Part shown: one piece after another, positions 36,003 through 39,122 of the stretch
How the letters are laid out: each line of letters starts with the position of its first letter
Numbering within the stretch: position 1 is the first letter of the stretch
Source of the DNA: a virus
Lineage: Duplodnaviria > Caudoviricetes
Length of the DNA stretch: 64,000 nucleotides
Virus record (IMG/VR): IMGVR_UViG_3300032285_003957
Span: 160,001-224,000 of that record
Reading direction: 5' to 3' (one strand)
The notes under the pieces: generated by a model
What the model saw: only the letters and a program-made list of their open reading frames with translations
The model's database searches: none
Told to the model about the DNA's origin: nothing
Program-made: the position numbers and the translations under genes

Positions 36003-36824
36003 ATGAAGAAAGCTACCATCTCAAACACTGATGAGATTAAACAGTATGTGAAAGACATTCGTAAAATTCCAATTATTTCCTACGAAAGACAAGAAGAAAT
36101 TTTTGCTGAATTGAATGACAAGCAAACAACAAAACAAAGAAAGAAAGAATTGTATGATGAATTGGTAAGAGGTAACTTACGTTTTGTCATTTCAGTTTCA
36201 AAAATGTTTCAAGGTCAAGGGATGGATTTGCTTGATGTTATCTCTGAGGGTAACATAGGATTAATTAAAGCTGCCGAAAGATTTGACCCAACAAGCGGAT
36301 TAAAGTTTATCTCATACGCTGTATGGTGGATTAGACAATCAATCATGCAATCATTAAATGAGAATGCAAGAACAATTCGTATACCATCAAACTTAGTTCA
36401 AGACGCACAAAAAAGTAAACGTAATGAAGTAAGTGCTGAAGATAATTTTCATATCAAGAGCGAAGAGAATGATAAAGAACAACCAATAGGTGTTAACTTA
36501 CCATATTGCGTTGGTTTATATAGAGAGATTAATGAAGAGGGCGACCAATTAATTGATATGATACCAAATCATAATTCACCAAGCCCTGAAGAATCTCTTA
36601 ATTCACCTGAAGAAATTAAGAAAAAAGTTTCTTTGATGTTGGGTATTTTGGACGAAAGAGAAAAAACAATCATCGAAAGATATTACGGTTTAACAGGTGT
36701 TGAATCAAATCTTGAAGATTTGGGTGAGGAATTTGGTTGCACAAAAGAACGTATTAGACAATTACGTGATAAGGCTATTAAGAAGCTTAGAAACGAGAGT
36801 TTTGGGCTCTTAAACTATTTATAA
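36003..36824 (+). CDS. RNA polymerase sigma-70 factor (short, Bacteroidota RpoD-like, no region 1.1)
   Basis: NLRFVISV...DVISEGNIGLIKAAERFD...KFISYAVWWIRQ (region 2) and LEDLGEEFGCTKERIRQ (region 4). Confidence 0.93.
   Translation: MKKATISNTDEIKQYVKDIRKIPIISYERQEEIFAELNDKQTTKQRKKELYDELVRGNLRFVISVSKMFQGQGMDLLDVISEGNIGLIKAAERFDPTSGLKFISYAVWWIRQSIMQSLNENARTIRIPSNLVQDAQKSKRNEVSAEDNFHIKSEENDKEQPIGVNLPYCVGLYREINEEGDQLIDMIPNHNSPSPEESLNSPEEIKKKVSLMLGILDEREKTIIERYYGLTGVESNLEDLGEEFGCTKERIRQLRDKAIKKLRNESFGLLNYL
36816..36823 (+). promoter_or_regulatory. Putative late promoter TATTTATA
   Basis: Overlaps the sigma gene stop and ends 4 nt before the next ATG. Confidence 0.5.
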
Positions 36825-36827
36825 TAG

Positions 36828-38327
36828 ATGATAAATAAAAATTGGTTAAAAATATTGGTAGCAATATCTGCAATTATGATTGCGGGTAGCGCAGCTTATT
36901 TTTCTGTAACAGGATTAGGAGTTTTATTTAGCGGCGCAGCTGTAGCTGTCATGGTAATGGCGGGTTCATTAGAATTCGCTAAATTGGTAACTGCAACTTA
37001 TTTAAAACAAGAATGGGATAATGTTAGTGGCGTTAATAAATGGTATCTAACAAGTGCTGTGGTTATTCTTATGGCTATCACATCGGCAGGTATCTTTGGT
37101 TATTTATCAAATGCTTTCCAACAACAGAATTTAAAATTAGAGCAGGTTCAACGCGAAATCGATGTATGGAATAATAAAATAACTTACACCAATCAACAAA
37201 TCGCCACATTACAAGGACAACAAAAAGATTTATCAACCACACAAAATACCTTATTAAGTAAGGGTAATGTTAATAGTAAGTTAATTAAATCAGCTGACAA
37301 TAGAGATAAACAATCCACAAAGTTATCTAATAAAATTAATTCACTTCAAGACTCAATCGTTGTCTATAACGGTAAAATTAACGACGTTAAAAATGCAAAC
37401 ATCGGTATTGAAAGAGAAGTTGGTGGTTTCCGTTTTGTGGCTGAAGCATTTGGTGTTGAATTAAAATCCGTAGTTAAATTCTTTATTATTTTAATCGTTG
37501 TTGTATTCGACCCATTAGCTGTAGCATTAGTAATTTCATTTAATCAACTTATGCTTGTTACTGGTAAAAAGAAAGAAGAGAAAGAAGAATTAGAACCAAC
37601 AACAAACCCTGAAGATTTAAAAAACTTTGTTGACGAAACGGTTAGATTACGATTAAGCGAAGACGATTTAAAGAAGTTAGAAGAAACTTTATTAAATCCA
37701 CCACCACCAAATGATGCACTTAAAGAAGCAGCCGAAAAATGGAATGGTGTTTCTCAAGAGGTTTGGGATAGAATGGAAAAGATTAGAGAATATAATGAAT
37801 CAATTCACGGACCAATTCTTCCTGAAGATGAACCGGTAGGTGCTTTAGCTAATAGCGAATATAGAGAACGTGGTGAGATTCTTGCTGAGATGATGGCTAA
37901 CGATGAGGAGTTAGGTCTTTATGATGAACCATTTGACAATCCAATGATTAAGAACGACGAAGACCAATCATATGACGTTGAAAATGGAACAGAACAACTT
38001 AATGAATGGGATGTTACTTTAATGGATGGGTTAGATGATGAAGAAAATAATTTCCATGAAGAGCCAACAGTGGAGGAAGAAAATGAAAATTTTTCCACTA
38101 TCGAACCAATATCTGAAAATATTTTCCAAGAAGAGGAATACGCAATACCTGTTGACGAAGCTGTAGATAACGAACCCGAATTAACTTTTGAAGAAGGACA
38201 ATTACCTGACGATATGTTAAAAGTTTTAAATGATGTTCAAACAGAAACGTTTAGTCAGGAACCAACAACGTTATTAGAACAAGATGCAACTACCTCTAAA
38301 GAAGAAGAGGAAGAAAAAAAAAACTAA
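36828..38327 (+). CDS. Multi-TM membrane protein with a periplasmic coiled coil and an acidic cytoplasmic tail; probably extended by a -1 frameshift to 38542
   Basis: Three N-terminal TM helices, a coiled coil, a FDPLAV TM helix and a D/E-rich tail ending in an A10 run. Confidence 0.7.
   Translation: MINKNWLKILVAISAIMIAGSAAYFSVTGLGVLFSGAAVAVMVMAGSLEFAKLVTATYLKQEWDNVSGVNKWYLTSAVVILMAITSAGIFGYLSNAFQQQNLKLEQVQREIDVWNNKITYTNQQIATLQGQQKDLSTTQNTLLSKGNVNSKLIKSADNRDKQSTKLSNKINSLQDSIVVYNGKINDVKNANIGIEREVGGFRFVAEAFGVELKSVVKFFIILIVVVFDPLAVALVISFNQLMLVTGKKKEEKEELEPTTNPEDLKNFVDETVRLRLSEDDLKKLEETLLNPPPPNDALKEAAEKWNGVSQEVWDRMEKIREYNESIHGPILPEDEPVGALANSEYRERGEILAEMMANDEELGLYDEPFDNPMIKNDEDQSYDVENGTEQLNEWDVTLMDGLDDEENNFHEEPTVEEENENFSTIEPISENIFQEEEYAIPVDEAVDNEPELTFEEGQLPDDMLKVLNDVQTETFSQEPTTLLEQDATTSKEEEEEKKN
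38314..38324 (+). other. Slippery site (A10 run containing A_AAA_AAC) immediately before the stop codon
   Basis: GAA AAA AAA AAC TAA; the -1 frame stays open for 72 codons (38324-38542). Confidence 0.6.
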
Positions 38328-38507
38328 TAACGAATTCACAAGAAGAAATCAATACAGAGGAAGACCACCCCTTAAGCACGGAAGATATTCAATCGTCACC
38401 TTTGGAGGAAACGGATACCCAAGACTTGACTAACCCAATAGAAGACTTATATTGGGAAGGAGGGACAAATTTACCTGCCCCACCAAAATCGATATTAATC
38501 ACAAGAA

Positions 38508-39122
38508 ATGTTAGCAATTCACAATATAGAAACAATAGATAGTTCTAAACTGAACATACATAAACGTAAGACCAAGAAGACTCAGATATTATTATATGAT
38601 ACTGAAAGAAGAGTCGATGATTTTATTGCTAAAATAAAATACAGACAAAACGAGAAATATGAAGACATACCTCATTTTGTTGTTTCTAAATTAGGGTTCG
38701 TTTATCAAATATTCGATACTAACTACAGTTCCACCACATTTAGGAATTCTACCATAGATAAACGCATTATTAAAGTTGCGATAGAGAACTTAGGGTGGTT
38801 AAATAAAAATACAATAACTGGTGTTTTAAATAATTGGATTGGTGACCCATACAGAGCTGAACCGTATGTTAGAACATGGCGTGGTCATTTCTTTTGGGAC
38901 AAGTATCCTGAAAGCCAAATGGAGGCCGTATCACAATTATGTGATTACCTATGTGAAAATAATAACATACCCAAACAAGTGGTGCCATCCAATGGGTATT
39001 TGGAAAAAGCAGCTAATTTTAAAGGAGTGGTCTGTAAATCAAACTTTGCGGATATTTATACAGATATAAACCCTTCGTTTAATTTTAGAATATTTTTTAA
39101 TGATGCAAAAGAAATTAGTTAA
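38508..39122 (+). CDS. N-acetylmuramoyl-L-alanine amidase (Amidase_2)-like protein with degenerate Zn ligands
   Basis: QILLYDT, PHFVV..LGFVYQ, AIEN, YPESQMEAV..L...L and DINP map onto the Amidase_2 pattern, but the first and last His positions are substituted. Confidence 0.65.
   Translation: MLAIHNIETIDSSKLNIHKRKTKKTQILLYDTERRVDDFIAKIKYRQNEKYEDIPHFVVSKLGFVYQIFDTNYSSTTFRNSTIDKRIIKVAIENLGWLNKNTITGVLNNWIGDPYRAEPYVRTWRGHFFWDKYPESQMEAVSQLCDYLCENNNIPKQVVPSNGYLEKAANFKGVVCKSNFADIYTDINPSFNFRIFFNDAKEIS

Follow-up and report, generated by a model that had tools for sequence, protein, structure and literature searches.

The window described here is a 64,000-nt stretch of viral DNA (Duplodnaviria; Caudoviricetes), bases 160001–224000 of the 234-kb IMG/VR virus record IMGVR_UViG_3300032285_003957. 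The record has a G+C content of 33.5% and a CheckV completeness estimate of 70%. Within the window, a gene for a 499-aa membrane protein lies between a sigma-70-like gene and a gene for an Amidase_2-like protein, and it terminates directly after an uninterrupted run of ten A residues (A10). Past the run, the −1 frame is open into the start of the amidase-like gene. This raises the question of whether the run joins the two frames, such that a single gene yields both a short and a C-terminally extended protein. The gene order DUF6576, sigma-70-like, membrane protein, Amidase_2-like is kept in the loci of relatives.

The membrane-protein open reading frame (ORF) ends with the codons GAA GAA AAA AAA AAC TAA TAA. 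A TAA triplet at 38297–38299 closes the −1 frame ahead of the run, and thus the extension can be entered only between positions 38300 and 38324, a stretch of about 25 nt (Table 1). The −1 frame has no ATG, and its earliest GTG or TTG is the TTG at 38402. A gap of 180 nt separates the 0-frame stop from the ATG of the amidase-like gene at 38508. The extension overlaps the latter gene by 35 nt (38508–38542), which represents its first 11 codons. These features had been described from the sequence alone (a 499-codon ORF, the A10 run at 38314–38323, the stop, the ATG-less frame of 72 codons to the TAG at 38540 and the gap), and re-reading of the sequence confirms them. At the composition of the record, approximately 7.7% of random codons are stops, and 72 open codons have a chance of about 0.3% at one locus. 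Only two runs of at least ten A residues are found in the record, versus about nine expected under a first-order model, and the other one is an A-rich leader that precedes an ATG. Among runs of at least eight A residues in the 234-kb record, the run at 38314–38323 is the only one that links a long ORF to an open alternative frame.

Table 1. Features of the membrane-protein locus (positions are those of the window).
Feature	Position	Strand	Comment
Sigma-70-like gene (regions 2 and 4)	36003..36824	+	Context; ends 3 nt upstream of the membrane-protein gene
Membrane-protein gene, 0 frame, short isoform, 499 aa	36828..38327	+	ORF read from the sequence
RNA hairpin abutting the 5′ edge of the run	38290..38313	+	CCUCU 38293–38297 / AGAGG 38306–38310
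TAA closing the −1 frame upstream	38297..38299	+	17 nt before the run
A10 run, candidate slip site (codons GAA AAA AAA AAC)	38314..38323	+	Exact run length read from the sequence
−1-frame extension, 72 codons plus TAG (38540–38542)	38324..38542	+	Acidic, predicted disordered
Tandem 0-frame stops TAA TAA	38325..38330	+	Begin 1 nt past the run
Amidase_2-like gene, 204 aa	38508..39122	+	ATG start at 38508; partial Pfam match

Among 167 related loci, 37 distinct junctions are found, which come from independent metagenomes; 33 of them have A10 and the other four A11. The 0-frame stop is found 1 nt after the run in 23 junctions and 3–4 nt after it in 12, with distances of 10 and 25 nt in one junction each. 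Ahead of the run, the −1 frame is closed 2–17 nt before the first A, often by a TGA formed from GAT GAA. After the run, this frame is open for 58–117 codons, versus 2–38 codons only for the +1 frame. In none of the 37 junctions is the run interrupted by AAG or GAG, and in these genes AAG makes up 17.5% of Lys codons and GAG 20% of Glu codons. The run is mostly followed by T or C, and by G in only seven of the 37 loci. The A11 lineages read GAA AAA AAA AAA TAT TGA and still require the same −1 shift; thus a uniform one-base undercall (A10 for A11) is not a general explanation of the layout. When the N-terminal domains are arranged in a tree, 35 distinct rows have the A10/A11 (−1) state, and they are spread over deep branches and on both sides of the midpoint root. 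The sequence-only reading had pointed to homologs as the place to look for the run, the stop and the open −1 frame. All three are conserved across deep divergence of the family, and the frame is protein-like. There is little doubt in our view that a conserved recoding event at the A10 run is real.

The −1-frame extension displays properties of a protein-coding sequence. Between close pairs, differences at the three codon positions of the −1 frame are distributed 81:85:215. Relatives share the motif LYWEKDDxNPNQVIYDLENNxxIIPxSE(D/E)E (alignment A2), and the Leu, Asp, Asn, Tyr, Lys and Val codons of the motif vary synonymously. These patterns indicate that the extension is coding and that purifying selection acts on it in the family. 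When a profile built from it is compared with 1.84 billion representative proteins, 66 clusters match. Short stand-alone gene calls (30–124 aa) with arbitrary starts account for about 58 of them, and five are in-frame fusions with the membrane protein; no other protein context is found among the matches. The extension has no family match in Pfam or PHROGs. A BLASTP search of the window extension against 120 homologs gives a best E value of only 0.08, to fused forms, and homology of the extension is evident from the DNA loci rather than from BLASTP. The window extension retains the acidic lead-in and the LYWE residues (38447–38458). In an AlphaFold2 (AF2) model of a relative's extension, a short β-hairpin is formed at VIYDLENNxxIIP with a predicted local distance difference test score (pLDDT) of 79–86, and the remainder is disordered. 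The β-hairpin is probably a short docking motif.

A basic C-terminal tail of the extension (RNVSxxRRRNxR) was considered as evidence of coding and was rejected, because the overlapping N-terminus of the amidase-like protein imposes it. The first 11 codons of the amidase-like gene (ML.I.D.E.LD) are conserved even where the frames do not overlap. Across the loci, the extension ends between 12 nt before and ~35 nt after the start of this gene. Some relatives differ in the first part of the extension: in L005:3931–4281 and L008:4000–4338, the lead-in is replaced by ~50 residues of Pro/Thr repeats (TPTxTPT...), which resemble a mucin-like stalk.

At the RNA level, a stem loop directly abuts the 5′ edge of the run. 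In the window, the pairs C38290–G38313 and U38291–A38312 lie outside the main stem, and the hairpin has a minimum free energy (MFE) of −6.3 kcal/mol, with z = −2.5 relative to shuffled sequences. When the 40 nt upstream of the run are folded, 27 of 36 unique loci have as their MFE structure a hairpin that terminates, on its 3′ side, with the G preceding the run (mean z −1.9). Perfect Watson–Crick stems of at least 5 bp end exactly at this position in 58% of loci, versus 1.3% when 21,600 control positions from the same genes are examined, and stems of at least 7 bp do so in 36% versus 0.1%. The two arms co-vary (CAUCAUC/GAUGAUG, CAUCACC/GGUGAUG, CAUCUUC/GAAGAUG and CGUCUUC/GAAGACG), and the encoded residues change in step. 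Hairpin columns are paired in 75% of cases versus 63.8% in shuffled alignments, and the covariation score is 0.27 versus 0.13; neither value is reached in any of 500 shuffles. A second, right-anchored alignment agrees on the pairing. By contrast with the upstream side, the 70 nt past the run show no positionally conserved structure: the MFE in the window is −3.4 with z = +0.72, and the mean z for 35 loci is −0.79; the hairpins that some loci do have there differ in position. GAGG-like words are present in some of the upstream sequences. They are not conserved, and such words are expected anyway in Glu/Asp-rich coding sequence.

The sequence-only reading had offered −1 ribosomal frameshifting and RNA polymerase slippage as alternatives. 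Recoding of either type is supported, and the comparative evidence leans to slippage because the run is held at 10–11 residues, a hairpin is adjacent on its 5′ side, a 3′ stimulator is not found, and the residue after the run is mostly not G. With the layout, its conservation, the protein-level selection on the extension and the 5′ hairpin all directly observed, we infer that transcription is the step at which the frame slips; any set ratio of the isoforms, and any function of the tail, are conditional in the same way. The A10 run would then be a programmed site with RNA polymerase slippage as the frame-changing step, a reading that we favour with moderate confidence. Standard decoding would produce the 499-aa inner-membrane protein, which stops right after the run. 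In some transcripts, RNA polymerase would slip on the run and one extra A would be added. The slip would take place when the RNA:DNA hybrid consists entirely of rA:dT pairs and the hairpin just upstream has folded in the nascent RNA. The slipped transcript, translated normally, would then be read as ...EEKKK-LITNSQ... with 72 residues added, to give a protein of ~571 aa that ends 32 nt into the next gene.

The RNA polymerase hybrid is 9–10 bp in length, and efficient transcriptional slippage has been reported in vivo at nine A/T residues (PMC5009743). A run length of 10–11 is about that of the hybrid, when seven residues would serve a ribosome. The junction peptide separates the two mechanisms: an extra A in the transcript places a Lys before LITNSQ, whereas a tandem ribosomal shift places an Asn there (EEKKN-LITNSQ).

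Several observations weigh against slippage as proposed here. Concerning the hairpin, RNAalifold called no consensus structure on either of the two alignments, and the case is built on single-sequence folds, the positional control and pair counts. When the pairing partners are slid by ±3 columns, 52–55% still pair versus 73% at the true register, because the hairpin arms consist of repeated codons (TCA TC / GAT GA). The conserved TSxExDDE peptide could thus account for part of the hairpin signal, and about one-quarter of the loci have no clean adjacent stem. In the window, as in several other lineages, most of the conserved β-hairpin motif has been lost from the extension, and the long form encoded here may be less functional than those of relatives. 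In addition, seven of approximately 44 lineages are either fused (four) or off-frame (three), which means that the tract length varies in the DNA or that assemblies err. Two further points, the presence of a −1 heptamer and the behaviour of Escherichia coli ribosomes on A11, favour the ribosome as the agent of the shift.

A ribosomal shift would take the form of a −1 tandem slip on A_AAA_AAC, or on the earlier A_AAA_AAA, or of a stimulator-independent sliding on poly-A helped by the adjacent stop. We regard it as unlikely but as the most serious of the alternatives. A valid −1 heptamer of the type X_XXY_YYZ is present in the 0 frame of every locus, as A_AAA_AAC in the window, but this pattern is trivially satisfied by any run of at least seven A residues. 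A 0-frame stop lies 1–4 nt past the run in 35 of the 37 junctions, and the phage encodes its own tRNA-Lys(UUU) and tRNA-Asn(GUU). E. coli ribosomes slide on A11; however, such sliding is robust at A11 and weak on A9 and A10 (PMC4363877), and A10 is the predominant length here. The heptamer would suffice for a ribosome, yet the run is never shorter than ten in the canonical loci. A_AAA_AAG is an efficient site of programmed ribosomal frameshifting in E. coli (PMC5009743), yet few of the loci have the G. Finally, no conserved 3′ stem loop or pseudoknot has been found, and the structure that is conserved is on the 5′ side, a position from which promotion of a −1 ribosomal shift would not be expected.

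The variant loci bear on a second alternative, that of a phase-variable (contingency) locus in which replication slippage toggles the DNA between A10 (short form) and A11 (long form) and the population holds both. Contigs L083 and L084 are A11 and fused, and they differ from the A10 contig L085 by that single A over 4.4 kb. L150, P0130 and P0135 are fused via an extra T past the run, and a different register (ELKKKLL) is used in the fused L108 and P0136. L088 (A9), L022 and L138 are one base off, which leads into a junk frame, and they are nested among canonical sisters. The single-A difference, the one-base variants and the fusions in five of the 66 representative clusters are all as a DNA switch would have it. 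Against it, 37 of ~44 lineages, from many studies, have the shifted arrangement as their assembled consensus. On the N-terminal-domain tree, the variants are scattered tips and not clades, and some enter the junk frame, as errors or neutral slips would give. The 5′ hairpin also has no obvious role in a DNA switch. Phase variation thus appears improbable. All of the fused lineages keep the run, with an immediate stop in the frame that is reached by losing one A, and polymerase slippage could still yield both isoforms from the fused genotypes.

A third alternative treats the −1 ORF as a small gene in its own right, with translation from a non-canonical start codon or through reinitiation past the 0-frame stop; we consider it very improbable. 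It would agree with the stand-alone ORFs that gene callers emit in most of the representative clusters, but the called starts are scattered: nearly all loci have no ATG, and the first GTG or TTG is found anywhere from +2 to +204 nt. The frame is open from the run itself, and its upstream stop borders the run. In-frame fusions also occur naturally, and the −1 ORF of clade B is the C-terminal domain of the family itself. A homopolymer miscall of one base in the contig or a recent inactivating frameshift, such that the locus is an ordinary single ORF or has a decaying tail, would fit the homopolymer variants among contigs and the eroded motif of the window extension, but it is equally remote given that the same shifted layout is found in dozens of independent assemblies, A11 lineages included, that the extension is under purifying selection in the family, and that 72 open codons are rare by chance in AT-rich DNA.

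The A10 run is not the only A-run junction of interest in the family. In five contigs of a sister lineage (L031, L037, L043, L078 and L109; e.g. L078:3424–3759), the ORF reaches TTA AAA AAA AAG, an A9 run, and stops after three more codons. The −1 frame of these contigs encodes DFSxRGIDxDGDG...WINDQNAVNYW, and in L109 it ends in ...SKTY. This is the conserved C-terminal domain of the family (DxDGDG loops, WINDQNAVNYW and a terminal ...KTY), which the five contigs have in the −1 frame only and which is present in frame in ~77 relatives; the in-frame homologs are taken as proof that A-run shifts in the family are decoded. The five contigs represent an independent second recoding site. A further case is L033:3343–4239, which is also found in L112 and L113; the three are a single lineage from two samples. 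Here an A9 run is followed 4 nt later by a stop, and the −1 frame contains a 298-codon coiled-coil ORF. A TGA closes this frame immediately ahead of the run, and a start codon is absent from its first 69 codons.

L035 and L128 have an uninterrupted A10 run (ATA AAA AAA AAA GAA) in the linker, ~75 nt past the NPPAP codons, and the ORF continues in frame. Slippage-prone runs thus recur in the linker of this family, also where no shift is called for. Perhaps the combination of hairpin, poly-A run and stop is a reusable joint, by which an N-terminal membrane module is connected via a −1 shift at A9–A11 to at least two, perhaps three, unrelated C-terminal modules. These modules would be the LYWE tail, the Ca-loop/WINDQNAVNYW domain (encoded in frame by other relatives) and the 298-aa coiled coil. 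In the manner of spa13 and spa32, slipped transcripts could also gate translation of the amidase-like gene, given that the end of the extension invariably falls at the start of that gene or slightly within it, and the tract would set the isoform ratio in the RNA and drift heritably in the DNA. The idea is speculative, and we think it doubtful as a whole.

The 499-aa protein has membrane helices at its N-terminus, followed by a long coiled-coil hairpin, one more membrane helix and an acidic, disordered tail that ends in EEEKKN. It has more than 7000 homologs, almost all of them unannotated. An AF2 model of a natural fused relative, which is of low confidence (pLDDT 52), has helices at residues 2–26, 29–59, 67–142, 148–188 and 210–244. 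In this model, membrane helices are N-terminal, residues 67–188 form a long helical hairpin, residues 210–244 form a membrane helix, and a few short helices are followed by the disordered acidic tail. By the positive-inside rule, we infer that the acidic tail is cytoplasmic. The tail is hypervariable, yet close homologs nearly all end in (D/E)EKK(N/K) plus 0–2 residues. N-terminal domains of about 30% identity are found by protein search in jumbo and T4-like phages that have been cultured (XacN1, RsoM2USA, Mosig, Mel-JY01, Flavobacterium phage immuto and others), and all are labelled hypothetical. Pfam and PHROGs give no functional family for the protein, with weak matches of a coiled-coil type. 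A weak TacA1/DUF1778-like match recurs just past the last membrane helix, at residues 266–303 (window 37620–37740), with E = 1.6e-4 in the window protein and 8.5e-9 in P0071.

With respect to the neighbouring genes, a sigma gene followed by a membrane-protein gene resembles a sigma/anti-sigma order; no anti-sigma domain was found. The Amidase_2-like protein covers only part of the Pfam model (E = 9.5e-8), and a PDB profile search with the amidase-like family gave no match. The strings YDT and VCKS both occur in the window's copy of this protein. Outside the window, at G000:C1:62220–67629, the phage has genes for tRNAs Lys(UUU), Asn(GUU), Glu(UUC) and Leu(UAG); these decode the slip-site codons GAA, AAA and AAC and the CUA just after. 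A terminator is absent from the + strand of the gap after the 0-frame stop, and promoter-like sites there are at chance level. TATATT within the LYWE codons was considered as a promoter element and was rejected, as coding explains it and the neighbouring codons vary synonymously. No match to Rfam was found in 38000–38800, and a DNA search of deposited phage genomes also gave none.

No published description of this gene family or of the site was found in the literature. The type of recoding is already known. Gene callers miss the long isoform; in about 58 of the 66 representative clusters, the extension is instead reported as a small ORF that is spurious and begins at an arbitrary point. The annotation is thus wrong for a large protein family that is very common in giant phages of lakes and the sea. 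The family also provides dozens of natural variants of a 5′ hairpin beside an A10–11 run, compensatory stem changes included, and this series is suited to the study of how nascent-RNA structure drives RNA polymerase slippage. To our knowledge, very few natural series of this kind exist. The natural in-frame fusions indicate that the long form is viable. The site suggests that these phages adjust the relative amounts of the two forms of a conserved inner-membrane protein that is encoded beside a sigma factor and a peptidoglycan-amidase-like protein, and it gives a handle on the function of that protein.

A known phage example of one gene with two C-termini is the −1 frameshift of the lambda G/GT tail-assembly chaperone, which is ribosomal, is heptamer-based and lies at the tail chaperone locus. 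Like lambda G/GT, the membrane-protein gene is a phage gene with overlapping frames, from which a short product and one with a C-terminal extension would arise. It differs in that the product is a polytopic membrane/coiled-coil protein, and the position of the gene between the sigma-factor and amidase-like genes bears out the earlier statement that this is not the usual chaperone locus.

Thermus thermophilus dnaX produces tau and gamma by slippage on a 9-nt run (PMC5009743). It shares with the present site the productive use of a homopolymer of at least 9 nt and two protein lengths per gene. The dnaX gene is unrelated, however, and slippage truncates the product in Thermus whereas it would extend the product here. 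In Shigella spa13, as summarised in PMC5009743, slippage produces a C-terminal extension that overlaps with the beginning of spa32 and affects spa32 expression. The phage extension likewise reaches 32 nt into the amidase-like gene; in some lineages it stops 12 nt short of that gene. The gene family and the biology are unlike those of spa13, and an effect of the extension's end on translation of the downstream amidase-like gene is a possibility that recalls the spa13/spa32 case.

The position of the hairpin finds a parallel in an IS630-family transposase of Roseiflexus, where slippage has been reported to be stimulated by a stem loop in the nascent RNA (Penno et al., 2015, as cited in PMC5009743). 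In the account given there, the stem loop lies directly 5′ of the slip motif and has a geometry like that of an intrinsic terminator, as does the phage hairpin. The Roseiflexus motif is U5C5 and undergoes a one-base deletion only according to the same account, whereas the A10–11 run must gain one A or lose two. The stems described here are AU-rich, are 5–8 bp in length and lie inside coding sequence, and dependence of slippage on the hairpin is putative in the phage.

Transcriptional frameshifting on an A11 run has been reported for tssM1 of Citrobacter rodentium and for tssM of Yersinia pseudotuberculosis (T6SS-3) (Gueguen et al., 2014; PMC4256274). For tssM1, mass spectrometry of cDNA demonstrated the mechanism and both forms were found to be necessary, whereas the case presented here is comparative. 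The bacterial gene is a secretion gene for which no 5′ hairpin has been described, in contrast with a phage gene that has one, and the part appended in tssM1 is a known folded domain rather than a disordered tail with a short motif. In both systems, the gene encodes an inner-membrane protein, the stop is located just past the poly-A run, and no 3′ structure is apparent. In tssM1, which also has no Shine–Dalgarno-like sequence, RNA polymerase adds A residues and thereby produces short and full-length variants (PMC4256274), as is proposed here for the phage membrane protein.

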